A stretch of 64,000 nt of DNA from a virus: the IMG/VR virus record IMGVR_UViG_3300009165_000006, one strand, 5' to 3'. Each line of letters starts with the position of its first letter. The first letter of the stretch is position 1. This document shows, in pieces, positions 7,298 through 59,478 of the stretch. Both the position numbers and the translations under genes were made by a program. Under the pieces are notes generated by a model. The model did not search any database, was not told where the DNA came from, and saw nothing but the letters and a program-made list of their open reading frames with translations.

Positions 7298-7392
7298 GTT
7301 CAGATTTTCAGTTGAACATCAGACCGCTTGTACGTAATAGGAGTTGGCCTGACCAGGTTTTGAGCAAAGCTCAGTCATTCGAGGAGAAGAGT

Positions 7393-7737: not shown

Positions 7738-7740
7738 CCC

Positions 7741-8190: not shown

Positions 8191-8272
8191 GTCCCTCATG
8201 CTCTAGGACGGTCGGACTTAAGTTCAAACTTCGATATTTATTGGCATCCCAGTTGAGTTTTGAGTAGGCTTA

Positions 8273-8282
8273 CGCGTAATAC
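8273..8282 (+). promoter_or_regulatory. CGCGTAATAC start-proximal motif
   Basis: CGCGTAATAC, then a 5-nt spacer (TGGGC), then the ATG at 8288. Member of the TGCGTAATA(G/C) motif family. Confidence 0.45.
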
Positions 8283-8287
8283 TGGGC

Positions 8288-18612: not shown

Positions 18613-19220
18613 AACGAGCCTACACGGGCATAGATCTCGATGGGCAAGATCCAAGCTATTTGATTGAGCAGACGTGCTTGCTTATCGCCGGCAAGGATTA
18701 CGATAGAAACATACCTAGACTTGAAGCTTGGAGGGTTCGTCTCGAAGAAGAAAGGCGCGAGAGGAAAGCCAAGCGTGATAGTGTTGAAGCAAAAGCTCGA
18801 GCTATCCTAATGGCCCATCTCGATGAAACCCAAGTGTCTGAGTTCGAATCCTCTGGATCCTTCCACGTCCTTGGTGCCGATGGTTACACCTATCTCATCA
18901 CCTCCAGGGAACAACACAATGTGTTTCGAATCGAGGAGGGACGTCGAACCTTCGAGTACTGCATCGTGACAAGGGATTTCGTACCCCTTCAGGATCAGAT
19001 GCTGACTCAAATGCTTCTCTTGACGACCCATCCTGCGATGTTTCATCAAATCGCGAACACCTGGGAAATTAGAGAAGATGGGACCCGCATCCGCATAGCA
19101 GGGCGACTAGTTGACGTTCTTGAGAACCCAGCCGCCCAAGTCGGCTGGGTTCTCAAATCTCCTTACCGGCAAGTATCTCTCTGTACATCGGGCCTAGCAC
19201 TTTTGAGACACTCCCCTTGA
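18555..19220 (+). CDS. hypothetical protein (start uncertain)
   Basis: 221-aa ORF with TTG start. The 3' end runs through the 19120-19156 stem-loop and overlaps the ligase gene end. Confidence 0.45.
   Translation: MGIRSRSAWDLDRGGLAFVERAYTGIDLDGQDPSYLIEQTCLLIAGKDYDRNIPRLEAWRVRLEEERRERKAKRDSVEAKARAILMAHLDETQVSEFESSGSFHVLGADGYTYLITSREQHNVFRIEEGRRTFEYCIVTRDFVPLQDQMLTQMLLLTTHPAMFHQIANTWEIREDGTRIRIAGRLVDVLENPAAQVGWVLKSPYRQVSLCTSGLALLRHSP
19120..19156. terminator. perfect 15-bp stem-loop at the convergent gene junction
   Basis: TTGAGAACCCAGCCG (19120-19134), loop CCCAAGT, CGGCTGGGTTCTCAA (19142-19156). It includes the ligase stop codon. No U-tract on either strand. Confidence 0.4.
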
Positions 19221-20094
19221 TGCTCTGCTCGGTAGCCCCGAGTTCGGTCATCTCCCGTTGGCAATCCTTGGCCAGGTCTGCGCAAACCGTGGTCAAGATC
19301 AATGGCATGTCCTTCATGGTATGGGTTAATTCAACCCCTCGGTCGTTAAGGCGTCCGACGGCGTTGATGACTCGCCCCTTCGTGACGTACTTGACGATGA
19401 AGTCATCAATCGGAGAAGGACCCCTTGGAGTTTTCTCTTTGGCGGCGGATGCAACTTCAGCGAACTTGGCGCATTTATGCTTACAGATTAGCCAGTTTCC
19501 AAACACGTTTCGGAGAAGAGGATTCGATCGGATGACCACCCCCTCAGCGATGTTGTCATCCCCAAAACCATTGATCTTCCCAACCGTGCTGGGTTTTTCT
19601 AAGAGCGCATCGAAGTTTGCCTGAGTCGGCTCCCCTCGCCACACCTCGGGTATTACAGGTAGCTCCATCTTGGAGCAAAGCTCGATGAACAGGTCGTAGG
19701 TGACAAAGTTCTTGGCCACCATGATGTCGAAGGCTCTGAAAAGAGGCTCCTGACCACTTGAGTATTGAACTCCCTTGGTTTTGATGCCGGGACCGTGAGC
19801 TTCACCAAAAACGGTGACTTCAGAGAACCCGTAGGACTTGATGACCTCCATCATCCTTGTTAGAAGGTCCTTCTGGGCTTTGAACTTGTTAAGCATGCTC
19901 CCGAGCGGGAAGTTCTGCCCAAGTTGATATTCGACGTCACGTGAACCATAACCAATCTCTTCGATGCTTTTCATCCCGAGTGGGAAAAAGAGACGAAAAT
20001 TCGAACCGTGGATTTTCTCGAGGGCAACTACTTCCCTGACAGAAAAGATCTCTGGGCAGTCGGAGAGTTGAACGATTGAAGGGTACTTTTCCAT
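19153..20094 (-). CDS. Rnl2-family RNA ligase
   Basis: Motif I EKIHGSNF (T4 Rnl2 has EKIHGTNF), VFGEAHGPGIK (T4: VFGEFAGPGIQK), AEGVVIRS, ICKHKCAKFAE (T4: IKCKNSKFSE), plus a C-terminal Rnl2-like domain. Confidence 0.88.
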   Translation of the reverse strand: MEKYPSIVQLSDCPEIFSVREVVALEKIHGSNFRLFFPLGMKSIEEIGYGSRDVEYQLGQNFPLGSMLNKFKAQKDLLTRMMEVIKSYGFSEVTVFGEAHGPGIKTKGVQYSSGQEPLFRAFDIMVAKNFVTYDLFIELCSKMELPVIPEVWRGEPTQANFDALLEKPSTVGKINGFGDDNIAEGVVIRSNPLLRNVFGNWLICKHKCAKFAEVASAAKEKTPRGPSPIDDFIVKYVTKGRVINAVGRLNDRGVELTHTMKDMPLILTTVCADLAKDCQREMTELGATEQSIKGSVSKVLGPMYREILAGKEI

Positions 20095-21561: not shown

Positions 21562-22451
21562 TGAACCAAGGTTCGCTCGAAGGCCTCGTTGTTGAGCACA
21601 ATCATGATGGAGGGTGGATCCGGAGCGTTCGCTTGACGAGTTGACTCATCGTACTCGTGGCAACCCCACTCACCCTTCTCCATGTAAGGTTGAACTCTTA
21701 CCCATGTTCCGATACTTGGATCAATGGCTGCAGCAGCCGCTATTGTGTCGTGAAGGGCCTTCCCCTCTGGGCGCTTTTTGAAGTAAAAAGCCATCCCTTC
21801 CTTGATGAGGTCAAGCCCAGCATGGGCTCCGGAAGGGATTCTCTCATTGACCATAGGACCCCAGAAGACACCGTGACAAACGTTCTTGGAAACCATCCGT
21901 CGAGTCCAGATAGGTGAGTTTTTACCCAGTAAACCGAGGGCTGCTTTCGAGTCGCCCCCAAGGTTGAAGGTCGGACAGGTGAGCTTGCCGGCGAACTTGG
22001 GTAGCCGGTGTTCGGGTGGGACGATGTTGTCTCCGGCGAAGCCACCCTGGCAAGTCCACGTACGGAAAAACGGCCACACCTCACTGCTAGCCTTCCAGAT
22101 GTTGGTGAGGGCCGCTCCAGTGATTAGGTGGGTGGTTGGAAAGTCCAGTAGTACCTGCTTAATGACCTCAGTGGCGCTTCCCTGGGGCTGACAGGGGGAG
22201 ATCTTCCCAAGCCAATCATAGTGGAACTGGGACACCTTAGAAGTTTGCTTCTTGAGGCTCCCAATTCCGATAGGCACGTCCGTCCGCCCAAGACGATCGA
22301 GGACATGACGAACTATCCCGACCTGGTCGAAACCTCCTGGATGGATCGTAGCCCCAACGAGTTTGGCTCGGGGATGAGTAGCAAGGAGCGCTAGAGTGAA
22401 CACGTCATCTGGGTCACTCGTTTCCATGTCGAACAGATATTCTTGAGTCAC
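21558..22451 (-). CDS. nucleoside hydrolase-like (IU-NH family) protein
   Basis: N-terminal DMETSDPDDVFTLALL resembles the D.D...DD motif. ALHDTIAAAAAIDPSI resembles the family's LHD..A...a.dP block. GTG start. Confidence 0.6.
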   Translation of the reverse strand: MTQEYLFDMETSDPDDVFTLALLATHPRAKLVGATIHPGGFDQVGIVRHVLDRLGRTDVPIGIGSLKKQTSKVSQFHYDWLGKISPCQPQGSATEVIKQVLLDFPTTHLITGAALTNIWKASSEVWPFFRTWTCQGGFAGDNIVPPEHRLPKFAGKLTCPTFNLGGDSKAALGLLGKNSPIWTRRMVSKNVCHGVFWGPMVNERIPSGAHAGLDLIKEGMAFYFKKRPEGKALHDTIAAAAAIDPSIGTWVRVQPYMEKGEWGCHEYDESTRQANAPDPPSIMIVLNNEAFERTLVH

Positions 22452-22514
22452 TTGAAATCAATCTCAGGTTATAGGAGTGGCTGCCACCTAAATTTCGATG
22501 GTGTATCAGCTACC

Positions 22515-23456
22515 ATGCCCTCTTCGTTGAGTAAAGCCCAAGCTTGTCTGCTGTGTCATGTGGTCGGAGACTCCCTTGGGAGCCTCGTAGAGTTCGAGTC
22601 CGAGGAGACCATCCTTCAGGAGCACCAAGGAGAAAAAGTGCGCTACCTCGCTGATGGGGGCACCTGGGAGACCTTGGCGGGGCAAGGCACAGACGATTCC
22701 GAAATGGCCATCACCCTAGCTAGGACTCTCATTCACCATGGTTTTTACAGCTCAACCATTATGCGGAGTATGTATTGCTATTGGCTCAATAGCCAACCAT
22801 TTGACGTTGGCAGGACCACTCAAAATGGACTCCTGGATATGCCTGACTTCCACAGCCAAGCCAATGGGGCTTTGATGCGTGTCGCCCCCTTGGGGATCTT
22901 TGGAGCGAAGAAGAAGGACTGGAGAAAGACCATGATCTGGGCGATGGAGGATGCCCTTATTACGCACCCAAATCAAATATGCTTACAAATCAATGCACTT
23001 TATGTATCGATGATCGATCAAGCAATCGGAAGTGATGCAAGCCCAGATCAACTCTACGGTGCGCTGGCCGCAACAGCAGTGGATATGGAAGCCCATCCAG
23101 TTATCCTCGAAGCTATCGACCGAGCTAGAACTGCCCCACCGGAAAACTACATGGTGAATATGGGTTGGGTTGTCCTCGCTTTCCAGAATGCGCTCTATCA
23201 ACTACTACACGCCCCGTCATTGACTGAAGGAATTGTCGATACCGTCAATCGCGGAGGTGATACCGATACCAACGGAGCAATTGCCGGTGCTCTGCTTGGG
23301 GCTGTTTACGGGATGGAGCAAGTCCCCAAGGATTGGATCGATGGAGTAACCCAATGTTGCCCATCGGTGACCAACCCCTACTCTAGAAAGCCACGTACAG
23401 GCTTCTTTTGGACTAATGATGTGCTAGAAGTAGCCAAAAAACTACTTGATAGTTGA
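22515..23456 (+). CDS. ADP-ribosylglycohydrolase family protein
   Basis: GDSLGSLVEF, GTDDSEMAITLA and GGDTDTNGAIAGALLGAVYG are classic DraG/ARH motifs. ATG at 22515 within track ORF 22443..23456. Confidence 0.85.
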   Translation: MPSSLSKAQACLLCHVVGDSLGSLVEFESEETILQEHQGEKVRYLADGGTWETLAGQGTDDSEMAITLARTLIHHGFYSSTIMRSMYCYWLNSQPFDVGRTTQNGLLDMPDFHSQANGALMRVAPLGIFGAKKKDWRKTMIWAMEDALITHPNQICLQINALYVSMIDQAIGSDASPDQLYGALAATAVDMEAHPVILEAIDRARTAPPENYMVNMGWVVLAFQNALYQLLHAPSLTEGIVDTVNRGGDTDTNGAIAGALLGAVYGMEQVPKDWIDGVTQCCPSVTNPYSRKPRTGFFWTNDVLEVAKKLLDS

Positions 23457-30669: not shown

Positions 30670-33301
30670 ATGGCCGAAGGTAAGAAGGAACTAGTACTAG
30701 TAAACAACGAGTTTGCATGGGTGAAGGATCTGTCAGGGGGTATGATTTGTGTATTGCGGTCCCCACAAGGAGCCGCTATCCGTAGACTCTGTGATTGTGA
30801 TCCAGAATGCGAATAGAGAGTTCGTTCCGATCGGTGGGGACCAACTGAAGGGGCAGACTTTCGTCCAAGCTCTGGAATCCCAGTACATCATCCTACACAA
30901 TCCCGAGACTCCCGGTGCTCGACTGATGACTCGAGGGAAGAACGAAGCCATAGCTCTCCAAACCGGTAAGTGCATCGTCAAACGTGGTCCATGCGAGTTC
31001 CCTCTTTGGCCTGGTCAGCAAGCGGAGGTTGTTGACGGCCATCGCATGACTTCGGACCAGTTCCTTCGAATTCGAGTAGTGGGGGAAGTGGCTCCTGACG
31101 ACGTCAAGGCTCTTCAGTTGTTACTCAAGGAGGACTGGCTCACCTCAAAGCCCATGCCTCAGCCCGTCAAAGCCGAGGAGCCTGCGGGTCTTTTCATCAT
31201 GGCCAGTGCATCCAAGGATCCGGAACCCGTAGAGGATGAGGTCAAGCTACCCGAGCTAACCATCGGCTCTGAGTGGATTGTCCGCGGAATGAAGACCAAG
31301 TTCTTCATTCCTCCTACTGGGGTTACGGTCCTCCCTGCTAATGACCGTGTGACCATAGGGGAAGACCCTTATGTGATGAATGGCGTTCCGCTCGATGCTG
31401 ATGAGTACGTCATTCTGAAGAACCGCAGTGGTCGAATCAGCTACGTTCTAGGCCCAACAACAGTCACCCCCTGCGAAGACCAAGAGTTTCAAGAATCTAA
31501 CAGTGGGTCTCACAACCCAGTCTTCAAGGCCCAAAGTATCGACGAAAACAGCGGTGTTCTACTCCGAACCCTGTTCCCGATGACTCGCAAGACGATCCAA
31601 GAACGTATGGGCTTGGATGTTCAAGTCCAATTTACTCCAATTGCCAACCCCAATGAGGACGGAGAGGAAAGCGATAGGAGAACACCTTCCTCTGATGAGG
31701 TATTACCTCCAGGGACTCAACTTGTCGTTTGGCGGGAGAAGCGATTGGTCTTCCCGGCGGATGGTATCCAGATCATCAAGAAGTTTGAGGCCATCCACAT
31801 TCTAGCGGGTACTGCTCGGTACGTGAAGAACTCGCTGACGGGTAGAACTCGAATCGTGCAAGGGGAATGTCTATACCTAGCTGATCCCCGATGTGAGGAG
31901 TTCACCAGCCGTCGTCTGACCAAAGAGATGATCGGACTCTGGCTTCCGGGGCAAACCTTCGAGACTTACAACCCCGAACTGGTTCCCTGCATTACCGTTC
32001 CTCAGGGTACGGCCGCCATGATCCTCAAGCGAGGAATTGGCTCAAACACTCGCAAGACCATCATTGGTTATGCCACTTACTTTCTGGAGTGGGACGAGAC
32101 CCTCTGCGAGATGAAGCTCTCGACCTCGCGGGGTGGAGAAGCCAAGACCTATCAGAATGCAATCAAGATCTGCTACCTCTGGATGAAGTCCAATCGAATT
32201 AACGATGCTCTACTGGATGGACGTACCCGGGAGGATTGTGAGTTCTCGATCCAATACACCCTGACGGTTGACTTCGAGGAGGAGCACAATGACTCCTGGT
32301 TCAACGTCGATGACTATGTGTTTCTCGTCTGTGAAGAGGTTCGCTCACGTCTACGCGGAGGTCTCCTTGCTACCTCCATCAGCGAATTGTCCACAAACTA
32401 CGTCGAGATCATCCGAGACATAGTTCTCGGCATGAAGCCCAGTGTACCGCTTAAGAGTGAAGACCCACTAGCCAGGCTAGAAGCCTATACCATACCTCAC
32501 CGCCCAGGAATCGAGTTCCCGAGGTTCGGAGCTCGACTGGTCGACATCAACATCAATGCCTTCAGTATTCGAGATCCAGAACTGCAGGGGCAGCTCCGCC
32601 AACTTCAGATGGCGGGGATCAACGAGTCTGTTCGAACTCGAACAGCTCAGATCATCTTAGATGGGGCTCGAATTCGAGCGGAGATTGAGAGGAACCAAGC
32701 CACCCTTGCCACGGAGACCACCAAGTTCAAGAAGGGTCAGGAGCTTATAAACACTGAGGTGGCTGAAGAGACCACTCGTAAGAAAGGTCAGCAAGAGCAT
32801 CAAACGGCCCTTGCTTACTTGGAAGCGGAAAAGGCTCGGTTATTGGCTGAAGCAAGTAAGAACCTTGAGGTAGCTGCGAAGAATGACGAGCTATCGAAAT
32901 CTCAGCTAACTACTCAAGCTACTCTTGCAGATCTTGGACTCAAGATCACCGAGCTCAAGAAGCTGACTGATCTTGCAGTTCTCGAAGTAACTAGCAAGAA
33001 TATGGAGCTCAAACGTCAAGACGAAACCGAAAAGGTGAAGGCAACTGCCGAGGCCGCTGCTATCGTCAACAACTCGGTCTTACCGACTCTCGGGGCACAC
33101 CTGGCGGAGATTCGAGACTCCCTCGTTGCAGACAAGCTGGTTAGTGCCTTCGGTGCAGCGGCAAGCTTCCGAGGCGTGGAAGTCGTCGAGCTTGCTGCTC
33201 AGACCCTCAGCTCGTTACCCGGTTTGGGATCTGTTCTTGGTCGACTACGTCGGAATCCTTCACGGAATGAAGGCCAGGGTAGCCCTCAAGCGACTAGATA
33301 A
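30670..33301 (+). CDS. major vault protein (MVP)-like protein; N-terminal 26 codons in a different frame (+1 shift near 30746-30752)
   Basis: Track ORF 30749..33301 (GTG start). QYIILHNPE...CEFPLWPGQ parallels MVP [9 protein letters not shown]...DPFPLYPGE. The shoulder-like DDYVFLVCEEVRSRLRG and the long C-terminal coiled coil parallel the MVP shoulder and cap-helix. ATG 30670 ORF (MAEGKKELVLVNNEFAWVKDLSGGMI) aligns with the MVP N-terminus. Confidence 0.75.
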
Positions 33302-45249: not shown

Positions 45250-45520
45250 TGAACCTCGATAAGAACTATCGCACGCCTTGACTCCAGTGACGAACTGTGA
45301 ACCGCTTCAACCACTCTTACGCGCGAGCTTGTCTGAATCTCAACTAAATTGAGTATAGCCTTCCAAAAGACCGTTCTGTGAAACTTATTCAAAGTTGCTC
45401 ATAGGAGAACTCCGATGTTCACTTCCTGCTTCAACGAGACATGACTCGTAGGCCGAAGGGTTCTCCTTCGTTCCGCCGCTAGAGGACTCTCCACAGGCTT
45501 TTTAGCGCCGAAGGCGCCTA
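45250..45520 (-). ncRNA. predicted omega RNA (reRNA) region of the TnpB element
   Basis: By analogy with IS200/605 TnpB loci, the guide RNA scaffold overlaps the tnpB 3' end and the right end. The 154-nt non-coding stretch after the stop contains the hairpin CTCAA-CTAAA-TTGAG (45339-45353). Boundaries are not determinable by eye. Confidence 0.35.
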
Positions 45521-46643
45521 GGTTCCTCGGGAACTCCGAGTACCTTTCCAAATTCTTCGCCGCATTCTCATCTCGATCATGAATAGCTCCACATCCTTCA
45601 CAAACCCACTCTCTCACAGAAAGAGCCAGCTGCGGCCGTTTAAGGCCGCAGCTGGTACATATCTTCGAGGATGGGAACCATCGATCAGCTACTTCTAGCT
45701 TAGATCCATACCAAGTGGTCTTGTAGGAAAGTAGCCTCTTACTTTCAAACCACCCTTGGTCCAAGATCGACCGAGAAAGGTGAGGATTCTTACTCATTCC
45801 ACGAATACCAAGGTCTTCCACAACGATGGCTGACTTGGTTTTCGCCAGCCCCGTTGTGAACTTATGAAGGAAATCCCTTCGAACGTTTGCTACTCGTGAG
45901 TGAATCCTCGCTAATCTTTGAGCTGATTTCCTCCTATTTGACGAACCCTTACGCTTCCTCGAATGAGAGCGTTGAGCCCTTCTTAACCGACTTAACGCTT
46001 GTTTCAATGGATTCGGGGCATGTATCTTCGTACAGGCCCCGTCCGAAGAGACCGTAGCGAAAGTAAGAATCCCTAGATCTACCCCAGCTTTTGGTCCTTG
46101 GATAGGAATAGGATCCGTCACGACCTCAACGGTATTGACGGATACGAACCATCGATCTGCTACCCTCGAAATCGTAGCTGAAAGGATCTCCCCACTAATC
46201 CTGCCGTTGATCTTCTCTTTGGTTCGAATAGTCCCAAGCCTAGGGAGCTTAATATACCTAGTTTGTGGCTCAATTGAACCATAGAGACGGAAGGAATCCT
46301 TTGATTTATGCTTCTTTTTGAACTTTGGGAAGCCAACTCCTTCTGATCTTCTGGACCAGAAAGCTTTGAAAGCTTTGTCAAGATCACGAAGAGCTTCCTG
46401 AGGGGCACACTTGGAAACCTCGTACATCCAAGGGAAGTCAGGGCCCTTGCGGGCGTTGAGGTCCCGATGTTCAGCGATGGCGTTGGTGAACTTCTCCTTA
46501 CCTTCTTGGGTTCGGAAGCGTTCGATCCTCCTTTGGAGGGACCAATTCCAAGCGAAGCGAGCCGTTCCGGCATGCTTCGCCAAGAACGTCCGAACCCGAT
46601 TGTTCGGATCTAACTCGAACTTATACGCCTTCCGAAGTTCCAT
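45399..46643 (-). CDS. tnpB: TnpB (IS200/IS605 OrfB-family RNA-guided endonuclease)
   Basis: MELRKAYKFELDPN...FLAKHAGTARFAWNW (OrfB N-terminus), RuvC-I GVDLGILTFAT, RuvC-II AIVVEDLGIRGM, Zn finger CTSCG...CEGCG, RuvC-III HDRDENAAKNL. Confidence 0.92.
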   Translation of the reverse strand: MELRKAYKFELDPNNRVRTFLAKHAGTARFAWNWSLQRRIERFRTQEGKEKFTNAIAEHRDLNARKGPDFPWMYEVSKCAPQEALRDLDKAFKAFWSRRSEGVGFPKFKKKHKSKDSFRLYGSIEPQTRYIKLPRLGTIRTKEKINGRISGEILSATISRVADRWFVSVNTVEVVTDPIPIQGPKAGVDLGILTFATVSSDGACTKIHAPNPLKQALSRLRRAQRSHSRKRKGSSNRRKSAQRLARIHSRVANVRRDFLHKFTTGLAKTKSAIVVEDLGIRGMSKNPHLSRSILDQGWFESKRLLSYKTTWYGSKLEVADRWFPSSKICTSCGLKRPQLALSVREWVCEGCGAIHDRDENAAKNLERYSEFPRNLGAFGAKKPVESPLAAERRRTLRPTSHVSLKQEVNIGVLL

Positions 46644-46842: not shown

Positions 46843-47340
46843 CTAGGTCCGAGCAGCCAAAGCCCGAGCGATAAACCGTCGAGCCTCGGGGTCCGAGGGA
46901 TCGAAGGCAATCGAGGCGCGTCCGGTGATTGGCACCGGGGGTTGTACGGATTTTGAACCGCCATCAATAGCAGGCTTCTTGGCGGACTTCCCCTCCGCCT
47001 TCTTGTCAGCACTCCGGAGAGTGTAAATCGTATTCGGGGTAATTACGGCTCCAAGTGCAGCTGCCTTCTCGACGATCTGCGCAGCCGAGAGCTTGGGATA
47101 CTTTCGAATAAACGCAGACTTATTGAGGGGGTTCCCCTCAACTTTCTTGGCAGCCTTGGCGGTCTTCTTGGCAGCCTTGCCAACCTTCCCCTCCGCCTTG
47201 CGCTTGTCCGCACTTCGGAGAGTCCAGATCGTTCCTGGACTTATTTCTTCCCCCAGTTTAGCCGCTTCCTCGACGACTTCTGCAGGCTTGAGGTTGGGAA
47301 ACCTGCGGATGAACTCTGATTTGTTGAATCTTTCTCCCAT
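46843..47340 (-). CDS. Lys/Ala-rich protein with internal tandem duplication (putative DNA-binding, histone-like)
   Basis: NKSEFIRRFPNLKPAEVVEEAAKLGEEISPGTIWTLRSADKRKAEGK is repeated as NKSAFIRKYPKLSAAQIVEKAAALGAVITPNTIYTLRSADKKAEGK. K/A-rich linkers. The function is inferred only. Confidence 0.6.
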   Translation of the reverse strand: MGERFNKSEFIRRFPNLKPAEVVEEAAKLGEEISPGTIWTLRSADKRKAEGKVGKAAKKTAKAAKKVEGNPLNKSAFIRKYPKLSAAQIVEKAAALGAVITPNTIYTLRSADKKAEGKSAKKPAIDGGSKSVQPPVPITGRASIAFDPSDPEARRFIARALAART

Positions 47341-47903: not shown

Positions 47904-48941
47904 TCAACAACCCAAAGTGTCGACGATTCGGCTAATCTTCTGGACCTTGGACCGGAGCTGATCTTCGGCAGCCATTCGGGCCACGGATCGATCCTCATCG
48001 TTACCCTCGCACCACAGTTCAAGACCGTGCACGAAGATTTCGGTGTGCCACTTCCCACCTGTTTGCTTCTCGGAAAGAACAACATCCTCGTTCTGGTAGT
48101 GGCAATGAGTTGGGTTTACCGAGTGCATGGGTTGGTTCATCCATGTCGAGAACTCTGACTGTACTTTGGCTTTGCTCTTAGCGAGATCAGCATCGTCCTC
48201 ATCATCGTCATCGGACTCGTCACCCTCCTCGTCATCATCGTTCTCAGACTCATCATTCTTCCCCTCATCCTCATCAGACTCGTCGCTCATAGCTTGAAGA
48301 GCTTCTCCAAGATCTAGGGTATCATTTGAGGGGTCATCTCCGAGGATTGGGCTAATCTTCGCTTTGGTTGCTAGAGAGTACCTGCCCCTCACGGGGCAGA
48401 TGAACCGATTCTTGTGTGCCGAAAGTATATTACTTACTGAACTCCTTCGCTTGGGCATCCAACATCTCTTCTCCAGCCTAGTGCAAATCTCGCCGACGCT
48501 GAGAGTCTCAGTTCCAATGACATAGATTACCCTATCGAGTAACTTTTGAGGTTTTTCATCTTCCGACATCACAACTTCCTCCTCCACCGATACTGACACC
48601 TCTACCACAGGTGCCCGAGTATCGGAACTACTTACTGAGGTGGCGGGGCTCGTCGGGGTTAGCCCTGTCCCATTAAGCAGTTTCTTATGTTCAATCACGG
48701 CTATAGCGGTTGCCCTCCTTTCTTTCTCTTGCAACCGCCTCGCTTCAACGATTGCCAGCCTGCGGTCCGTGAACAAGCAGCTCTCGCTGGCCACGAATTC
48801 GTAATGGTCTTCAACTGAACGTACGGTCACAGGATCAGGAGGGGCATTCGTCGGCGAATGCCCTTCAGTACCAGCTTTTATGATGAAAACTGGTATGATC
48901 TGCCCCGTTCCCGCTATCCAGCGCATAGGGTGGGTAGTCAT
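47904..48941 (-). CDS. hypothetical protein with poly-acidic segment
   Basis: Track ORF 47904..48968 uses TTG. ATG at 48941 preferred, 8 nt after the TGCGTAATAA motif. Contains DESDEDEGKNDESENDDDEEGDESDDDDEDD. Confidence 0.7.
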   Translation of the reverse strand: MTTHPMRWIAGTGQIIPVFIIKAGTEGHSPTNAPPDPVTVRSVEDHYEFVASESCLFTDRRLAIVEARRLQEKERRATAIAVIEHKKLLNGTGLTPTSPATSVSSSDTRAPVVEVSVSVEEEVVMSEDEKPQKLLDRVIYVIGTETLSVGEICTRLEKRCWMPKRRSSVSNILSAHKNRFICPVRGRYSLATKAKISPILGDDPSNDTLDLGEALQAMSDESDEDEGKNDESENDDDEEGDESDDDDEDDADLAKSKAKVQSEFSTWMNQPMHSVNPTHCHYQNEDVVLSEKQTGGKWHTEIFVHGLELWCEGNDEDRSVARMAAEDQLRSKVQKISRIVDTLGC

Positions 48942-48949
48942 GCCCCGTG

Positions 48950-48959
48950 TTATTACGCA
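48950..48959 (-). promoter_or_regulatory. TGCGTAATAA start-proximal motif
   Basis: Minus strand reads TGCGTAATAA CACGGGGC ATG (ATG at 48941). Confidence 0.4.
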
Positions 48960-49055
48960 TAGATGCAAGAAAATTCAACAGAAATTGTCGAGTGGTGAAA
49001 TCTCCTACCTTGTACCCAATCGTGACCAGGCGCATCCTCGGTGTAGCCCATCTGA

Positions 49056-50291: not shown

Positions 50292-51218
50292 GTGCTAGCA
50301 ACAAGAAAATGCGCATTCGACTCATGCGAGATAGAGTTCGAACCAACACATCCATACCAACAATACTGCTGTACTAGGTGCAAGGAGCGCGCTCGTTGGC
50401 ATCGTTCAGAACAGATTGAAAAATCCAAGAAACGCAGCCAAAAGTGGTACTCCGATCCGGAAAATAAGCTCAACCACAGGGTAGCTCGAAGGGGTAGACG
50501 CATGTCAGTAAAAACTGGTAGAGGTGAATGGGAGATGCCAGCCCCAATGATCGAATACCTACCGGGCGGATGCGTCCCGATTGCTATTGAGTGTGGGTAT
50601 AAGTTCGAACATTGGCAACTTGCATCACTTCACGGAATGATGAGTACGATCACTGGACCTCACTCAGCCAACAACCCAGTATTTACACTGTTTCCGTGGC
50701 ACATAGGGTGCGGATGGGCCGCGTACATTCGAGATATTGAGTTAGCCAGATCGATTGCCATGCGTACACACGTGGTCAACTTCAATGACCGTGAGCAGGA
50801 ACTCGCTCTAGGATGGCTCGTACGTGTCAAAGCACCACAGATCAAGCCAGGTGCTTGGAAACTTCGAATCACAACTATTACACCTGTGTGTTGTCGCGCA
50901 ACTGGAGGGACTTATTACATGGCTCCAACTGCGAACAACATCAAAGGGACTCTTGAGGTAAACGTTGCACGAAGGCTTGGAATAAAGACTGAGAAACACG
51001 ACGTTCAGGTCAGATTGCTTGACTCAAAAGCCTTCTTAGACAAGCTTCGACTATCTGGCAATGGCAGCAAGCTTGGTGACATTTGTGGGTGGTCTGGAAG
51101 CATCGACATTGAAGTGAATGCGCTTGGTAGGCTTCTGCTTGAATGTGCCGCCCTCGGCATGGGATTGGGAGGCAAGTTGGCGTTTGGATTTGGGCGAATC
51201 AAGGTAGAGACAATATGA
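50292..51218 (+). CDS. Cas6-like RAMP protein with N-terminal zinc-ribbon extension
   Basis: The C-terminus GMGLGGKLAFGFGRIKVETI is the glycine-rich loop typical of Cas6/RAMP C-termini. N-terminus CAFDSC...CCTRC. GTG start. First gene of a 6-gene operon. Confidence 0.55.
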   Translation: MLATRKCAFDSCEIEFEPTHPYQQYCCTRCKERARWHRSEQIEKSKKRSQKWYSDPENKLNHRVARRGRRMSVKTGRGEWEMPAPMIEYLPGGCVPIAIECGYKFEHWQLASLHGMMSTITGPHSANNPVFTLFPWHIGCGWAAYIRDIELARSIAMRTHVVNFNDREQELALGWLVRVKAPQIKPGAWKLRITTITPVCCRATGGTYYMAPTANNIKGTLEVNVARRLGIKTEKHDVQVRLLDSKAFLDKLRLSGNGSKLGDICGWSGSIDIEVNALGRLLLECAALGMGLGGKLAFGFGRIKVETI

Positions 51219-52387
51219 GGCCCTCGCCAAGTCAGCTGCTTCACAAAGCAATAGGAAGCCCGCGGGTTGACGGGTGCTCGGAGGCAAACGGTCTTTGCTA
51301 CGTTTGCGCAGGTCCTGTAGTTCGAGGAAAACCCGTTGTCGACTGGTGTACTTCAAGTTACACAGATCAGAATCGTGCGCGTTGTCCTGCAGCAATTTAC
51401 GTCTGTGAGGCATGTTGCATGCTTGCTGCACGTACTTTTCCAGTCCCTGGGCGCCCGCCAGGACAGTGTTCGGTTTGCGAGGGAACCGGAACTGTGAAAA
51501 AGATTCCTCCCAAGGGCAAAGGAAAGGCGTCCAAGATCGGAGACGCTTGCCCTAAGTGTGGTGGTACGGGCGAAGCGTCGTTCGGTGGCAACTTCCGCAA
51601 TTACAGCCACCTATATGAGGAGGGGTGGGATTCACCGTCACTTCCGGATGGAACCGTGATCCCAGGCTACCTGAACGCATCAAAGGGAGAAAAACCGATC
51701 GTGCTTAACTTCCTAAGGCGTGACCACCACGGCATGTGGTTCGCTGCAATCGCAGACAGTGGACAGAAGCATGTGGTGCATCATACACCACCGAACCTGC
51801 TCGGTCCAGGCGGAACGGTGCTGTTCGAGGAGACGCTTGTTAGCATCCCACCAGGTCTCTCGCTGGTAGACGAAATGACAGCACTTCTCACCGCTGGAGC
51901 AACAAAGGAAGAGATTCTCATCGGAGAATATAGCCAGTTCACATGGCTGCGCTTGGAGACAGCAATCCGTGAATTTGAGGGTCGTAACGCGAAGCGGCGG
52001 CATACTGGGTGGTTTCGTTTGGCGCTATGGCTATCTCAACGAGATGAGGCAGCAGTAGCTATAAGGATTGAAGCCGAGAAGGCAGCAGAGAAAGAACGTA
52101 AGGCACGGACCAAACAGAGAACCAAGGAGACTCAAAGTGTTGAAACAGGAAGAAAGAAAGCATCTCGAAACACTTCTTGTCGAGATGCTGTTATCGATCC
52201 GAGACCGGTATGTGAAGGACAAAGGGGGGAAGGTAAAGCCGGACTACCTCGAACAGATCCAAAACCGAGCCAGAACAAGTGCAGAAATGTCACCGACCAT
52301 CAATCGGTGGGTGAACGAGCTTCAAATAGACCTACAAATGCAGAGCATCGACACGTGGGGCAGCTCAGCCTCTTCAACGCTCCTTGA
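51215..52387 (+). CDS. Csf1-like (type IV Cas8-like) zinc-finger large subunit candidate
   Basis: ATGA overlap with the upstream stop. N-terminus CYVCAG...SSYTDQN...VCEACC has the Csf1-like CxxC..FTD-like..CxxC layout. Inserted DnaJ-type CSVCEGTG...CPKCGGTG. The last ~85 codons are low-complexity and overlap the next ORF. Confidence 0.45.
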   Translation: MRPSPSQLLHKAIGSPRVDGCSEANGLCYVCAGPVVRGKPVVDWCTSSYTDQNRARCPAAIYVCEACCMLAARTFPVPGRPPGQCSVCEGTGTVKKIPPKGKGKASKIGDACPKCGGTGEASFGGNFRNYSHLYEEGWDSPSLPDGTVIPGYLNASKGEKPIVLNFLRRDHHGMWFAAIADSGQKHVVHHTPPNLLGPGGTVLFEETLVSIPPGLSLVDEMTALLTAGATKEEILIGEYSQFTWLRLETAIREFEGRNAKRRHTGWFRLALWLSQRDEAAVAIRIEAEKAAEKERKARTKQRTKETQSVETGRKKASRNTSCRDAVIDPRPVCEGQRGEGKAGLPRTDPKPSQNKCRNVTDHQSVGERASNRPTNAEHRHVGQLSLFNAP

Positions 52388-52607
52388 TCTAGTAAGCTTC
52401 TGCGACGAACACTCGTGCCACAGAGAAGCGAAAATGATGGTAATTCGCGATGGTGCGTTCTTGTTTGCATTGCTCCGCAAACAGATCGAACTTCGCAAAG
52501 AAGAACGGGAGCGAGAGAAGCAGGAGCGAATCCTTGGGAAACTTACCAAGGAAGACATGTTGGCAGCAGCAGAAGAGAATGGATTGTTAGTTGAGGAAAC
52601 GGCATAA
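52137..52607 (+). CDS. Cas11-like small subunit candidate
   Basis: GTG at 52137 preceded by AAGGAGA (6-nt spacer). About 156 aa, helical and charged. Sits between the large-subunit-like and Cas7-like genes. Frame is +1 relative to the upstream ORF. Track ORF 52068..52607. Confidence 0.4.
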   Translation: MLKQEERKHLETLLVEMLLSIRDRYVKDKGGKVKPDYLEQIQNRARTSAEMSPTINRWVNELQIDLQMQSIDTWGSSASSTLLDLVSFCDEHSCHREAKMMVIRDGAFLFALLRKQIELRKEEREREKQERILGKLTKEDMLAAAEENGLLVEETA

Positions 52608-53590
52608 TGGAGACAACTCGATACATTTCGGTGGTCAGGGCAGTTCAACCGATCGCGCATCACAAGGGTAGTATCGGAAATCACGCAACGATCATGCGTG
52701 CAGCTGTAAGGCTTCCTGGCGGAGAGATCGCAGACGTGCCAGAGGGCACTGGTAACGCAGTTAGAAATCGATTACGCCGAGCTGCCGCGATCTGTTCATT
52801 GGACGCAGCTGGAATTCTGGGGGATCCCCAACTCGAACGTGGAGCGATGCGGCTGCTGTTCAACGGCGGAATGCTCACTGGAAAGGGTGATGGGACCACG
52901 ATCAACATCGATCGATGGCGCGAGCTTGTGACGCTATTCCCGTTTCTTGGGATCCTTGGGGGTTGCATCGACAATCGTACCCAAGGCGGACAACTCAATG
53001 TTGACGCACTGAAGCTCATCTGCGAGGAAAACATGCACTCGCTAAATCCATGGACGCGACAGTGGCTCAAGGATAACAATGAAGGGATCTGCGAAAGCTC
53101 CTACCTACTTGAGAAAGTTCAACGGGTGAATATGGACCCGGAGATCCTTCCCGAGAACCTGAAACTGCTTTCGGAGGGTGCGAGGTTACAAGTCTATAAC
53201 AAGCTACTAGCACAGGGTAAAGCTCACGAGGAGGGGAACGCGATCGAGGCCGCAAAAGTCAAGAGCGACATGATGCCGCATACGTTCGAGCGAATCATTC
53301 GCGGGTCATTGTTTCAACTGTCGTTCTTGTTGAGGTCTTATAACGAGCTTGAGCGAGACGCTTTCGAGTACGCCTACTCCTGCCTATTGAACAACTTCCG
53401 TTTCGGAGGAAAACAAGCATCAGAACACGGGGAACTCGAATTCCTTGCGGGTGCCAGGGTTCACTTCAAACAATACACAGGAGAGCTCGACATCGGTGAG
53501 CGAAAAGGAACCGGTGATCTGTTCCGAGCGCACGTTACCGATCACAAGGAACAGCTGGTGAACTGGTTACGGCACGAGGTAGCAGCGTGA
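52607..53590 (+). CDS. Csf2/Cas7-like RAMP backbone subunit
   Basis: Three blocks as in Csf2/Cas7: VPEGTGNAVRNRLRR (..GNslRg.lR), LLFNGGMLTGKG (L.sGG.l) and LFPFLGILGG (..P...LFGG). TAATG overlap with the upstream gene. Confidence 0.6.
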   Translation: METTRYISVVRAVQPIAHHKGSIGNHATIMRAAVRLPGGEIADVPEGTGNAVRNRLRRAAAICSLDAAGILGDPQLERGAMRLLFNGGMLTGKGDGTTINIDRWRELVTLFPFLGILGGCIDNRTQGGQLNVDALKLICEENMHSLNPWTRQWLKDNNEGICESSYLLEKVQRVNMDPEILPENLKLLSEGARLQVYNKLLAQGKAHEEGNAIEAAKVKSDMMPHTFERIIRGSLFQLSFLLRSYNELERDAFEYAYSCLLNNFRFGGKQASEHGELEFLAGARVHFKQYTGELDIGERKGTGDLFRAHVTDHKEQLVNWLRHEVAA

Positions 53591-54240
53591 ACTACGAGCC
53601 AATCAAGGTCAGCTGCAAGCTTGCCGAGGGGTTCGTAATGCGAACCCCTACCGTGTTGGATTCACTATTGGCCGCAGTGATAGCAATGCGTGAGCAGTTG
53701 CCTACTCCGATATCCGAGGACGAAATCAAAGAGATCCCAGTACCCATTGACGAAGCTGCTGGGATTCGACTGTGCTCATCGGCCATGTTTGAGATAGAGG
53801 AGACATTCGGCTCATTTCGAACACGACGCCCACCAATCGAAGAATACTGCCACTTTGGAAAGCGTGGTGGTTCCGTATCGATTGCTAGTGGCCCCGACAA
53901 GCTCTATATGATGGAGTATGACTACCAGTTCGCAGTTGACGACAAAGTGACATGGTTTGCATTGGGAGACATTGTCAGTGTACACAACTTACTGACGGAT
54001 GTATTCTACCTCGGCAAACATCGCTCAATCGGCAAAGGGCGGATCATTGAAGGCTCATGGAAGGTTGAAAGCTGTAAACCCTGGGGTGAAGGGTTTCCGG
54101 TGGTTCATAACGGCACTCCGAAGCGTCCCTTGCCGTTAGGTTGGCCTGGCGTGGCCACGACAACCAGGACCGGTTACGCAACGTTACGACCCCCCTATTG
54201 GATGTACTCTCGTGAGGAAGCCTGCTTCCTCCCAGGATAG
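53587..54240 (+). CDS. Csf3/Cas5-like RAMP subunit
   Basis: N-terminus ..RTPTVLDSLLAAVIA (LDgLL-type block) and glycine-rich loop LGKHRSIGKGRI. 217 aa. GTGA overlap with the Cas7-like gene. Confidence 0.5.
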   Translation: MNYEPIKVSCKLAEGFVMRTPTVLDSLLAAVIAMREQLPTPISEDEIKEIPVPIDEAAGIRLCSSAMFEIEETFGSFRTRRPPIEEYCHFGKRGGSVSIASGPDKLYMMEYDYQFAVDDKVTWFALGDIVSVHNLLTDVFYLGKHRSIGKGRIIEGSWKVESCKPWGEGFPVVHNGTPKRPLPLGWPGVATTTRTGYATLRPPYWMYSREEACFLPG

Positions 54241-55701
54241 ATGAAAGCTCTAGCTTGCACGCTCGACACATGGGATGCCTTCGCAAGGGCCACCGGAAGA
54301 ACTGAGACCACCGGTCTCACGTTTCCCCTACGAATACTCGAGATTATCGGAAAGCCCTACGGACTAGAGCTCGAATACGCGAACAAACTGAACCGCCATG
54401 ACGCAGTGTTCATAGCGGTTCACGACTTTAGTTCGATGCTGTCCCTTGGAAAGGCGATGCAGAAGCTGAAATTGCCGCTACTTGCCAAAGACCGCGACCG
54501 AAGTCACCCGCTCGTATGGATGGGCGGACAAGGTACACGCAATCCGCTACCTATTGCCGATATTGCTGACTTGATAGTGCTTGGGGATGCAGAGCTCTCG
54601 CTGCCTCAATTACTCCAAATATGGGAGCGAAATGGGAACAGTAGAGAGTTCCTGGTGGGAGCGTCTACTGTCTCTGGGGTATTCGTTCCTTCGATCCACA
54701 ACGAAAATGAGGTGACCCTGAAAATGGGTTGGTCACCGGATATACGAACTTCACTTCAAAGCAGAAGCCTACCAATGGAACAGCATGCCAGAATCGAGCT
54801 CTCGCGTGGATGCAAGAGCAAGTGCTCATTCTGCGGACTCGGATGGATGGGTCCAGTTCGACATAACACCTTGGACGACGTACGGGATGCTATCCGAGGA
54901 GTGCCTTCGGTCCACCTGCAGGCTTGCGATGCCGAAGCTTACCCGGACATCGTTCGGTTGCGTGAGTGGATGCGCGAGAGAGGAATCAAAGACACCGGGT
55001 GTACCTCACGTCTCGATTCTAATTACGATGCTAGGAGCGAATTTCTATTCGACAAGTTGTTCAATTTCGGAATCGAGGCTGTGACCGAGCGTGTCCGCCG
55101 CAAAATCGGCAAGGCCAGACTAACGAACGACTTCATCGTTGAGGCTATGTGCGGGCTATACGAGAGACAGAAAACGCGGAAGGGTGAAGCCTGTGAGAAG
55201 ACCAATTGGCACATGATCTCTGGACTTCCGGGGGAGTTGGTATCTGAAACCGCGGAACTGGCGCAGACAATCCGAAGGCTCGATGCGACAATGCTGGAAC
55301 GGAGAATCACCGGGCAGCTAACGATCCGATGGCAACCGTTACTACCCTGTCCTGGGACACCACTGCAGTGGTGTCCCATTGGGCCGGATTGCGAGCCGTG
55401 GAGTAAGGCCTTGGCCAGAAACATCCGCAAAACGTACTGTCTGAAGCTAGAACATGGTTCCGGGAGACAGGAACGAAAGCACGCCCTGACCTGTATACTG
55501 ATGCGGTCAGGGCGTGTGGGGGCAAAGCTGATCGCACTTGAGTCAAAGTCTGCGGTTACCCCAGTTGCCGCGGTCGAGCTTACCGGGACGACTACCGGTA
55601 AGCTCGACCTTAGTGGTCCGCTTCCATGGGATTTCGTGCATGGTTACTACCCGCGAGGGGTGCTCGAAAAGGCCTACAAAAAGACCATACAATGCACGTA
55701 G
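54241..55701 (+). CDS. radical SAM enzyme with N-terminal B12-binding-like domain
   Basis: IELSRGCKSKCSFCGLGW gives CX3CX2C at 54811-54834 (aa 191-198). N-terminal VWMGGQGTRNP...DLIVLGDAELSLPQLL resembles the class B (cobalamin-domain) rSAM fold. The start abuts the Cas5-like stop. Confidence 0.8.
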   Translation: MKALACTLDTWDAFARATGRTETTGLTFPLRILEIIGKPYGLELEYANKLNRHDAVFIAVHDFSSMLSLGKAMQKLKLPLLAKDRDRSHPLVWMGGQGTRNPLPIADIADLIVLGDAELSLPQLLQIWERNGNSREFLVGASTVSGVFVPSIHNENEVTLKMGWSPDIRTSLQSRSLPMEQHARIELSRGCKSKCSFCGLGWMGPVRHNTLDDVRDAIRGVPSVHLQACDAEAYPDIVRLREWMRERGIKDTGCTSRLDSNYDARSEFLFDKLFNFGIEAVTERVRRKIGKARLTNDFIVEAMCGLYERQKTRKGEACEKTNWHMISGLPGELVSETAELAQTIRRLDATMLERRITGQLTIRWQPLLPCPGTPLQWCPIGPDCEPWSKALARNIRKTYCLKLEHGSGRQERKHALTCILMRSGRVGAKLIALESKSAVTPVAAVELTGTTTGKLDLSGPLPWDFVHGYYPRGVLEKAYKKTIQCT

Positions 55702-58122: not shown

Positions 58123-59478
58123 ATGAAAGTCCCTGAAAGAGTCCGTTTTATCTGCAGTATCTTGAATCAAGCAGGCTTTGAAGCCTGGGTTGTTGGTGGC
58201 GCAGTGCGCGACTCTATACTTGGCCGAGAAGCTCACGACTTCGATGTGGCCACTAATGCTCTCCCTGATAGAGTCGTCAGGCTGTTCAGTCGTGTCATTG
58301 AGACCGGTATCCAACATGGAACGGTCACGGTCATGATTGAAAACGAGGGCTTCGAGGTCACCACCTTCCGTGGTGAAGGTACCTACTCGGATGGGCGCCA
58401 CCCAGATAGTGTCAGGTTCTTGGACTCTATCATCGAGGACTTGGCTCGTCGAGACTTCACAATGAATGCGGTCGCGTACGACCCCTTGACAGGGAAGTTC
58501 TGTGACCCCTTCGGTGGGGTGCAGGATATCGAATGCATGCTCATCCGAGCTGTAGGATCTCCTGAAGAAAGATTCCAAGAAGACGGCTTGAGAGTCATGC
58601 GAGCTATTCGTTTCATGAGTACTCTGGGATTCTCCATTGAACCACGTACTCTCGAAGGTATGGCGAAGATTGATTCCCTAGCCTCCCTAGCCAAGGTCAG
58701 CGTTGAACGGGTCAGGGACGAGCTCTTTAGGATCATGGGCTCGAAAGCACCCTCTCGTTCAATGAATGCCATAGTTCATACCGGAGTCTTGGACGTGATC
58801 CTACTAGAGATGCGCCCGATGGTTGGGTGTACTCAAAATCGGTACCATTCCTACGACGTTTGGACCCACACGATGGTTACTCTCGACCATTGTCCGGATG
58901 ACAACCCTATCCTCAGGTTTGGGGCTCTCTTTCACGATATCGCAAAGCCCGAGGTGAAAGGGGTTCACCCAGTCCATGGGGATGCCACTTTCTACGATCA
59001 TGAGCTGGTGGGGGCAAAGAAGACCGATGAGATCTTGACTCGGTTGAGGTTCTCAACCGAAGATCGGGAGAAGATTGTTCACTTGGTTGAGCACCACTTC
59101 ATCCGGTACGAACACGAGTGGTCGAATTCAGCGCTTCGTCGTTGGGTTCGGAAGGTTGGATTGGAGAGCGTCCCCACTTTCTGCACTCTCGCCCGGGCGG
59201 ACATCGCCGGGAAAGGGCCTATAGCCACAGTTGAATCCGAGAATTCAGTCATTGATGACCTGGAGAATCGGGTATCCAGACTGCAATTGACCGAAGTGAT
59301 CCCAACGTCAATCAAGGTGCTTGCCATCGACGGGAACGACGTGATGGCTCACTTGGGTATAGGACCAGGCCCTAGGATAGGAAGAGTGCTAGAAAGCCTT
59401 CTAGACGCCGTAACGGAGGACCCAGAACTCAACACCCGGGAGAAGCTCTTGGAGCTTGCCAGGGAAGTTCAAGTGTGA
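58123..59478 (+). CDS. cca: CCA-adding enzyme / tRNA nucleotidyltransferase with HD domain
   Basis: VVGGAVRDSILGREAHDFDVAT (GG.vRD...G....D.D), ERV.DEL, and a C-terminal HD domain (LFHDIAKP...HH). Confidence 0.9.
   Translation: MKVPERVRFICSILNQAGFEAWVVGGAVRDSILGREAHDFDVATNALPDRVVRLFSRVIETGIQHGTVTVMIENEGFEVTTFRGEGTYSDGRHPDSVRFLDSIIEDLARRDFTMNAVAYDPLTGKFCDPFGGVQDIECMLIRAVGSPEERFQEDGLRVMRAIRFMSTLGFSIEPRTLEGMAKIDSLASLAKVSVERVRDELFRIMGSKAPSRSMNAIVHTGVLDVILLEMRPMVGCTQNRYHSYDVWTHTMVTLDHCPDDNPILRFGALFHDIAKPEVKGVHPVHGDATFYDHELVGAKKTDEILTRLRFSTEDREKIVHLVEHHFIRYEHEWSNSALRRWVRKVGLESVPTFCTLARADIAGKGPIATVESENSVIDDLENRVSRLQLTEVIPTSIKVLAIDGNDVMAHLGIGPGPRIGRVLESLLDAVTEDPELNTREKLLELAREVQV

Follow-up and report, generated by a model that had tools for sequence, protein, structure and literature searches.

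An out-of-frame csf1/cas11 overlap and a conserved Csf1 terminal motif in a viral type IV-B-like CRISPR-Cas operon

How are two subunits of one CRISPR-Cas effector complex encoded, and how is the second of them made, when the gene of the first runs far into the gene of the second in another reading frame? The question is raised by a virus DNA of 64,000 nucleotides (nt) from IMG/VR (record IMGVR_UViG_3300009165_000006), hereafter the window, in which all positions are those of the whole stretch. Its plus strand carries, between 50.3 and 55.7 kb, a tightly packed type IV-B-like CRISPR-Cas effector operon. In this operon csf1, encoding the Cas8-like large subunit of type IV systems [51215–52387, plus strand; 390 amino acids (aa), from an ATG at 51215 to a TGA at 52385–52387], shares 251 nt with cas11, encoding the small subunit (52137–52607, plus strand; 156 aa, from a GTG to a TAA at 52605–52607), which is read in the +1 frame relative to csf1. 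The dual-coding stretch (52137–52387) specifies aa 1–83 of Cas11 in one frame and aa 308–390 of Csf1 in the other. To our knowledge, the cas operons of bacteria and phages seldom contain long overlaps between genes in different frames.

An earlier inspection of the letters alone, here called the sequence-only reading, had described a Csf1-like open reading frame (ORF) that stays open to 52387 and a +1-frame ORF with an AAGGAGA-N6-GTG start at 52137. The ORF layout confirms the first and reads exactly as described for the second, the +1 frame being open over 52065–52607. The explanation that we consider probable combines three elements, namely an overprinted csf1/cas11 gene pair, a Cas11 initiated inside csf1, and a Csf1 tail that ends in a putative sliding-clamp-binding motif. 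These elements are not equally secure, and each is weighed below against the alternatives that bear on it.

Two overlapping genes and the start of Cas11

Csf1 is recognized by both sequence and fold. It matches PADLOC typeIV_Cas8 over aa 6–279 (E=1.4e-13), and its AlphaFold2 (AF2) model, built with 29 homologs [predicted local distance difference test (pLDDT) 81.7] and confident over the core and a following helix (aa 1–317), is matched by Foldseek to the type IV-A Csf1 7xg1_A (E=1.8e-5) and to 8rc3_G, with a probability of 1.0. The large-subunit call of the sequence-only reading was right on both counts. As is typical of type IV, Csf1 is accompanied by adjacent Csf2 (Cas7) and Csf3 (Cas5), and no Cas1, Cas2, Cas3, adaptation or nuclease gene is found among the ORFs of 46–60 kb. 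The small-subunit call made at the same time also holds, by way of the protein family: 31 of the 37 homologs of the window Cas11 match PADLOC typeIV_Cas11, the family profile finds its best PDB match in the Cas11 of 7JHY (E=0.037 over 90 residues), and the gene lies between csf1 and csf2 as in type IV-B operons. Direct scans of the window protein (Pfam, NCBIfam and PADLOC models, and phmmer against PDB sequences) gave nothing meaningful. Its AF2 model, based on a six-sequence alignment, is all-helical and of low confidence (pLDDT 64.8); a Foldseek search of this model against the PDB returned non-significant helical-bundle matches only and was not used as evidence.

Is the overlap real? The sequence-only reading had suspected an error near the Cas11 start, and a sequencing or assembly indel could indeed have given csf1 an artificial extension, although the unusual length of the overlap is all that speaks for such an artefact. 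Related loci were compared on 15 contigs of metagenome-assembled genomes, 34 IMG/VR viral contigs and four contigs of close relatives (cited below by L numbers). Wherever tblastn detects Cas11 in a related locus, it is encoded in the +1 frame relative to Csf1, and the +1 ORF of these loci crosses the Csf1 stop and terminates at the start of cas7. The overlap measures 191–362 nt in 37 of 41 distinct loci, with a mode of about 240 nt and values mostly between 224 and 308 nt, and 50–89 nt in the remaining four. An identical 390-aa Csf1 (P0001) is present in independent JGI and Logan assemblies. At the protein level, a word-index search with Csf1 retrieved 450 homologs, mostly of 320–430 aa and many spanning the whole query; clustered at 50% identity, the clade has 295 representatives in a library of 1.84 billion proteins, and a tail of at least 60 aa is present in 104 of the 118 representatives whose core end is recognizable. 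Because the same architecture recurs in about 40 related loci and in independent assemblies, the overlap is not an artefact; the suspected indel is refuted, and we give an artificial extension virtually no credence. The arrangement is a true overlapping-gene, or overprinted, organization in a type IV-B-like effector operon.

It is also restricted to one lineage. Canonical type IV-B Csf1 proteins are 216–245 aa long and have no tail, and their genes overlap cas11 by 14 nt, by 4 nt or not at all (Skermania phage SPI1, Rhodococcus erythropolis pREL1 and a Rhodovastum plasmid), which identifies the long overlap as a derived feature of one clade. Gene callers handle such loci poorly: Cas11 is cut to 89 aa in L050 (1457–1726), and csf1 goes unlisted in L052 and L053 (around 7076–8468) though it is intact, so that automated surveys under-call one of the two genes. 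A word-index search with Cas11 retrieved five proteins only, probably as a result of gene callers truncating or dropping it.

For the synthesis of Cas11 two routes had been proposed, out-of-frame initiation inside the large-subunit gene and a +1 frameshift that would yield a Cas8–Cas11 fusion. The window contains a Shine–Dalgarno sequence, AAGGAGA (52124–52130, plus strand), inside the csf1 coding sequence and 6 nt before the GTG at 52137. When the +1 ORFs of the related loci are aligned, a start codon (ATG or GTG) falls within a few codons of the homologous Cas11 N-terminal column in 41 of 42 loci, and AAGGAG or GGAGG lies 5–10 nt upstream of the aligned start in nearly all of them. The codon that matches the window GTG is ATG in the closest relatives (L050–L053, at 68–75% Csf1 identity). 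Cas11 homology starts at one alignment column, at the conserved start codon; upstream of it the +1 frame is unconserved, and in L001, L020, L023 and L027 it is closed 2–8 codons before the start. A slippery or stop-codon shift site was sought and none is conserved, even among the relatives at 68–75% identity. Since the start codon and the Shine–Dalgarno sequence are conserved, whereas the upstream +1 frame and any shift site are not, these alignments argue for independent internal initiation, and we strongly infer that Cas11 is made separately, from its own Shine–Dalgarno sequence and the GTG at 52137 within csf1.

A programmed +1 frameshift, acting alone or mixed with internal initiation, would instead give a Csf1–Cas11 fusion. 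Several features of the locus are of the kind that such a mechanism would show: the +1 phase relation is universal among the related loci, csf1 itself contains a Shine–Dalgarno-like element, and the window has 24 open codons of the +1 frame upstream of the GTG. Shine–Dalgarno-like elements stimulate +1 shifting in prfB. In a prfB-like arrangement, however, that element stands about 3 nt upstream of a conserved shift site, whereas here its distance of 5–10 nt from the start is that of initiation and close relatives share no shift site. The early closure of the +1 frame in the four loci named above and the exact coincidence of Cas11 homology with the start codon point the same way. A fusion would, moreover, lose the conserved C-terminal motif of Csf1 described below, and canonical type IV-B operons encode Csf1 and Cas11 as separate proteins. 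Frameshifting is therefore very improbable as a source of Cas11; the fusion proposal finds no support, and the proposal of internal out-of-frame initiation is well supported. Initiating Cas11 separately would let its amount differ from that of Csf1, and the stoichiometry of the solved type IV-B complex (PDB 7JHY), with five Cas11 and six Csf2 chains, fits separate initiation.

Internal translation of Cas11 as such has precedents. In types I-B, I-C and I-D, Cas11 arises from an internal in-frame start in the large-subunit ORF (bioRxiv 10.1101/2020.04.18.045682; PMC11899642). These systems likewise combine an internal ribosome-binding site, separate control of Cas11 dosage and a compact operon. 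There, however, Cas11 is the C-terminal domain of Cas8, whereas the start in the window is in the +1 frame, and the shared DNA yields two proteins with no amino-acid sequence in common; an in-frame internal Cas11 was found neither in the window nor in any related locus. In our assessment, an out-of-frame Cas11 start, with the other frame encoding a separate functional peptide, is new relative to the known in-frame internal translation of Cas11.

Selection on the two frames and the Csf1 terminal motif

If cas11 accounts for one frame of the overlap, what does the other encode? The csf1 frame runs about 110 codons past its conserved folded core (aa 1–277), and the last 83 of these codons lie over the 5′ half of cas11. 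In the AF2 model the extension begins as a long charged α-helix (aa 278–317; 52046–52165, plus strand), the last part of which contains the cas11 ribosome-binding site, and continues as a disordered, low-complexity linker of about 65 residues (aa 320–382; 52172–52360, plus strand), with pLDDT below 50 over aa 320–390. It closes with the pentapeptide QLSLF (aa 383–387; 52361–52375, plus strand), a conserved C-terminal short linear motif. The window protein ends in ...HVGQLSLFNAP, the motif stopping three residues from the C-terminus; an example of the tail peptide is EHRHVGQLSLFNAP. Linker sequence is poorly conserved, while the presence and the length of the linker are conserved. As modelled, the part of Csf1 that lies in the overlap (aa 308–390) would be essentially only a disordered leash and the motif. 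The sequence-only reading had described the translation from about 52140 as low-complexity; this stands in so far as the tail is rich in Arg, Ala, Glu and Lys after about residue 278 and disordered from residue 320 (nt 52172), but the tail is not featureless, and the QLSLF motif had been missed.

A new frame overprinted on an older structured gene usually yields a disordered product. Overprinted genes of viruses offer the nearest parallel, in that a younger frame likewise lies over the gene of an older structured protein, its product is disordered and the genomes concerned, here those of phages and plasmids, favour compactness. They differ from the present case in one respect, the new frame here being a C-terminal extension of an existing protein and not a new gene.

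Alignment of homologous loci had been suggested as a way to see which frame is conserved. Carried out here, it shows the Cas11 frame to be dominant and the terminal motif of the Csf1 frame to be kept as well. In pairwise comparisons of five close relatives, differences in the overlap are most frequent at the third positions of Cas11 codons (0.398) and less so at the first (0.154) and second (0.107) positions; in the csf1-only region of the same relatives the phase is opposite, with 0.523 at Csf1 position 3. Cas11 is thus the dominant constraint in the overlap, because the periodicity is of the Cas11 type and most of the Csf1 tail changes freely. We had considered the RVP, LG and VG columns of a 29-sequence Csf1 alignment (A1) as signs of selection on Csf1 and rejected them: the bulk of the overlap evolves with the periodicity of the Cas11 frame, and the window residues in the RVP column lie over the codons of Cas11 R22 and Y25. 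The RVP-column residues are most simply shadows of conserved Cas11 residues.

In the window the Csf1 frame nevertheless stays open where random codon choice would rarely keep it so. When the window Cas11 was recoded with synonymous codons, the Csf1 frame remained open across the 82 overlapping codons in 0.5% of trials. In other loci treated in the same way (the closest relative, L050, and more distant GC-rich loci) it remained open in 2–72%, and the actual frame is open in all of them. The Csf1 stop falls at the same variable Cas11 loop in most loci, and otherwise about 20 codons later, after a basic extension.

Conservation at the end of the frame is sharper. The motif takes the form Q-L-[S/G]-L-F-(G) or Q-x-x-L-P-G-F-[D/G]. 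Scored as Q[LIMFV]x[LIMF]F or Qxx[LIMF]PG[FILM] within the last 30 residues, it is present in 103 of 120 Csf1 homologs (86%), against 0.01 expected from shuffled tails, and in 85 of the 104 long-tailed representatives. With the Cas11 protein sequence kept and its synonymous codons drawn at random, the median chance that the motif persists is 0.009 per locus, yet it is seen in 30 distinct loci, which are related by descent, so that the per-locus probabilities are not fully independent. Its codons are also restricted, the Gln of the Csf1 motif being always CAR and the Leu nearly always CTC. Beneath them, the first of two Cas11 serines is a serine in 27 of 35 loci, written AGC or AGT and followed by TCN. 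Given these CAR and CTC codons, the choice of Cas11 serine codons is dictated by the Csf1 frame. Constraint thus acts on both frames at the motif, which makes this a truly dual-coding region. Read in this way, the alignments indicate that the Csf1 frame is kept free of stops and that its terminal motif is held in place by the choice of Cas11 codons. Conservation of the tail at the protein level had been named as an observation that would speak against an internal Cas11 start. It proves to be a matter of the C-terminal motif, the bulk being poorly conserved, and it does not contradict internal initiation; it indicates instead that both frames are functional.

The tail could alternatively be a tolerated read-through by-product, in which an ancestral csf1 stop was lost and the resulting neutral extension was kept open by GC-rich composition. 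The poor conservation of its bulk, which evolves as a shadow of Cas11, is what this explanation would lead one to expect; GC-rich relatives do stay open in 5–70% of synonymous recodings, and some loci are without a tail. Composition does not account for the window, however, which at about 50% GC gives the 0.5% quoted above, nor for a stop that most loci place over one and the same Cas11 loop, nor for a motif that 86% of homologs share and that only particular Cas11 codons allow. A neutral by-product of this kind is accordingly very improbable.

A subclade of four loci (L021, L025, L031 and L035) has a short Csf1 tail of 30–40 aa, an overlap of 50–89 nt and no terminal motif. The Csf1 frame beyond the stop of these short-tail loci was checked for a motif that a recent nonsense mutation would have left behind, and none was found. 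The subclade could represent an intermediate state or a secondary loss.

A candidate sliding-clamp ligand

What might a conserved pentapeptide at the end of a disordered leash bind? The consensus for binding to the bacterial β-clamp is QL[S/D]LF, or more loosely QxxLF, and QLSLF is given as its full form; the motif usually lies at a protein terminus, and transposases of mobile elements use a C-terminal copy to couple to the host replisome (PMC12309361, PMC4549789). The Csf1 motif agrees with known clamp ligands both in sequence (QLSLF, aa 383–387) and in its accessible, terminal location within the segment of pLDDT below 50. Polymerases, Hda and the transposases of mobile elements carry the same C-terminal consensus after a disordered segment, and with the transposases Csf1 further shares a mobile-element bearer. 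It departs from these ligands in that one third of the Csf1 family has QxxLPGF. The motif occurs in loci with a radical SAM or with a CysH-like accessory gene, and with or without the zinc insertion in Csf1 (see below); as it is independent of both, its partner should be one common to all loci. We tentatively propose that the terminal motif of Csf1 is a β-sliding-clamp (DnaN)-binding motif, at odds a little short of even.

Conservation of the tail and motif says nothing in itself about the partner, and a functional tail could be directed at something other than the β-clamp, such as a Csf subunit, the accessory enzyme or another host or phage protein, while the basic linker could bind nucleic acid. 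Textbook clamp motifs do not include the Q-x-R-L-P-G-F variant, and docking within the complex is conceivable since Csf1 is flexible and unresolved in the type IV-B structure obtained by cryo-electron microscopy (PMC7937560). The commonest forms, QLSLF and QLGLF, nonetheless match the published clamp consensus exactly and stand at the C-terminus after a disordered linker. The motif also fails to co-vary with the type of accessory gene, and canonical type IV-B complexes assemble without such a tail. Another partner is on this balance unlikely, if by no means negligible. In the literature that we searched, nothing links Csf1 or type IV-B to the sliding clamp or to clamp binding, and no CRISPR-Cas protein carrying a clamp-binding motif was found.

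Were the motif to bind DnaN, Csf1 would act as a flexible leash that holds the RNA-guided Csf complex to loaded clamps on DNA undergoing replication. Such a tether may deliver the complex to replication forks and so give it access to replicating, transiently single-stranded targets; alternatively, it may compete with polymerases for the clamp on the targeted replicon. Either role would be in keeping with a system that lacks a nuclease and travels on phages and plasmids.

Several points weigh against the explanation as a whole. Dual translation of the csf1/cas11 overlap is a prediction from sequence. The window Cas11 has no direct match to a Cas11 model, its identity being transitive through homologs, and its AF2 model is of low confidence. 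The descent shared by the loci, mentioned above, softens the statistics of the motif, and the existence of a short-tail subclade without it indicates that the tail is not essential for the complex. Concerning the clamp in particular, the assignment to DnaN relies on a sequence match, a position and predicted disorder. About one third of the homologs carry Q-x-R-L-P-G-F, which fits the hexapeptide class (compare QLSLPL) less exactly, and Gly at motif position 3, common in the Csf1 family, weakens clamp binding in Escherichia coli (PMC12309361). With these points included, we estimate a probability of roughly 65% for the combination of an overprinted csf1/cas11 pair, an internally initiated Cas11 and a tail with a putative clamp motif.

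Operon, relatives and viral setting

The Csf1/Cas11 family is placed in or next to subtype IV-B, on the basis of the csf1–cas11–csf2–csf3 order, the match of Cas7 to 7JHY and a CysH-like gene in 36 of 48 related loci. Type IV-B systems (for example Mycobacterium sp. JS623, PDB 7JHY; Rhodococcus pREL1; Skermania phage SPI1) have the same gene order and carriage on phages or plasmids and lack nuclease and adaptation genes. The window departs from them in the Csf1 tail, where about 110 aa of helix and disordered segment ending in QLxLF overprint the first half of cas11, and also in its accessory genes, having a Cas6-like gene and, in place of a CysH-like gene, a radical SAM enzyme. Type IV-B is described as lacking both Cas6 and a CRISPR array; in the window a Cas6-like gene lies directly upstream of csf1, and no array is adjacent. 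The CysH-like (PAPS reductase) gene is absent from 44–62 kb of the window. Orthologs of the radical SAM gene stand beside cas5 in L011, L014, L016, L020, L050 and L052, and L014 has both the radical SAM and the CysH-like gene; the radical SAM enzyme may be an uncharacterized accessory swap in type IV-B. A tblastn search of PLSDB plasmids with the window Cas7 gave no match, and the canonical type IV-B plasmids were reached through the Cas7 of Skermania phage SPI1.

The operon is compact throughout, and all its genes are on the plus strand. The Cas6-like gene (50292–51218) combines an N-terminal Cys-rich, NinG-like region with a Cas6 C-terminal domain (PADLOC Cas6b/Cas6, E=2.9e-5 to 9e-5, aa 186–305), its TGA overlaps the ATG of csf1 as ATGA, and a homolog is present in 38 of 48 related loci. 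Downstream, the TAA of cas11 overlaps the ATG of csf2 (Cas7; 52607–53590), whose product matches PADLOC typeIV_Cas7 (E=9e-33) and has its best PDB sequence match in Csf2 of the type IV-B complex 7JHY. There follow csf3 (Cas5; 53587–54240; PADLOC typeIV_Cas5, E=1.3e-29) and the gene of the radical SAM enzyme (54241–55701; Pfam Radical_SAM_N2, E=3e-18, and Radical_SAM, E=1.4e-8), which has a B12-binding-like N-terminal domain. NCBIfam gives weaker matches to the same Cas families for the operon proteins.

Csf1 contains two cysteine-based elements in its core. An N-terminal CxxC...CxxC zinc ribbon (C28, C31, C64 and C67; 51296–51415, plus strand; NCBIfam cas8u_csf1, aa 4–74) is invariant in A1. 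To this is added an insertion with two CxxCxGxG repeats (51467–51571, plus strand), CSVCEGTG at aa 85–92 (51467–51490) and CPKCGGTG at aa 112–119 (51548–51571), which the sequence-only reading had taken for a DnaJ-type zinc finger. The motifs are real. The Pfam family DnaJ_CXXCXGXG (PF00684) matches aa 79–121 with E=0.012 and 16.3 bits, against a cut-off of 32.7, and there is a marginal sequence match to the DnaJ structure 1EXK. The two exact repeats of Csf1 stand about 20 residues apart, like those of a single DnaJ zinc centre; DnaJ itself has four repeats and two zinc centres, whereas Csf1 has two repeats, a sub-cut-off match and no J-domain context, and does not belong to the DnaJ cysteine-rich domain family. 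With two of the four DnaJ repeats present, one zinc centre is expected. In A1 the insertion is a segment of about 33 residues between the conserved blocks PVPGRPP and GGNFRNY, cleanly absent in many homologs, which have K-(E/D)GK-K instead; its pattern occurs in 42 of 120 homologs, with two perfect repeats in 25. What had been read as a DnaJ-type insertion is thus half of such a module; about 40% of close homologs have it, and the family as a whole does not share it. It appears to add one further zinc knuckle to the Csf1 core, in a surface loop, as an optional decoration that varies between lineages and has no connection with the overlap.

No convincing CRISPR array was found beside the type IV genes, either in the window or within about 6 kb in related loci. 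The window does contain a five-repeat array at 1583–1936 (37-nt repeat GGATCCAATCCTTTTTGATTGCCCAATTCGTTGGGAC, spacing 72–77), which is 50 kb from the type IV Cas6-like gene. It directly follows an ORF of 485 aa (115–1572, plus strand) with a sub-threshold Cas12f1-like TNB domain and matches to transposase PHROGs, and the stretch 115–1936 looks like a compact type V or TnpB-derived locus. A complete IS605-family TnpB gene (45399–46643, minus strand) is found 3.6 kb upstream of the type IV operon; its product has OrfB_IS605, Cas12f1-like TNB and HTH domains. Also upstream of the operon are two minus-strand ORFs with no family match, one of 165 aa (46843–47340) that is rich in Lys and Ala and has an internal duplication, and one of 354 aa (47904–48968) with a long acidic Asp/Glu/Ser repeat (tandem repeat at 48197–48281). 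Accessory genes typical of large phages or plasmids occur elsewhere in the window (16599–17345, 19153–20094, 22443–23456, 30749–33301 and 58123–59478), the set comprising a ThiF-family E1-like enzyme, an RNA ligase, an ADP-ribosylglycohydrolase, an 850-aa protein with an MVP shoulder domain and a CCA-adding/poly(A) polymerase with an HD domain. The related type IV loci are mostly found on IMG/VR viral contigs of 40–100 kb.

For the genetics of cas operons, the locus offers a clean natural example of a long out-of-frame dual-coding region, of about 250 nt. For the biology of the subtype, a 2024 review lists the target, the effector activity and the biological role of type IV-B as unknown (PMC11127173). 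We suggest, with less than even confidence, that a large and uncharacterized clade of phage- and plasmid-borne type IV-B systems evolved a clamp-binding Csf1 leash by overprinting cas11, and that their complexes would be coupled to the clamp of the host replisome, where they would survey replicating target DNA or interfere with it, needing neither a nuclease nor a helicase. If true, type IV-B function would gain its first mechanistic foothold, and for the first time a CRISPR effector would be linked directly to the sliding clamp. The clamp-consensus peptide on Csf1 names a concrete candidate partner, DnaN, and a mode of action at replication forks through the putative clamp contact would fit the part that type IV systems play when mobile elements are in conflict.

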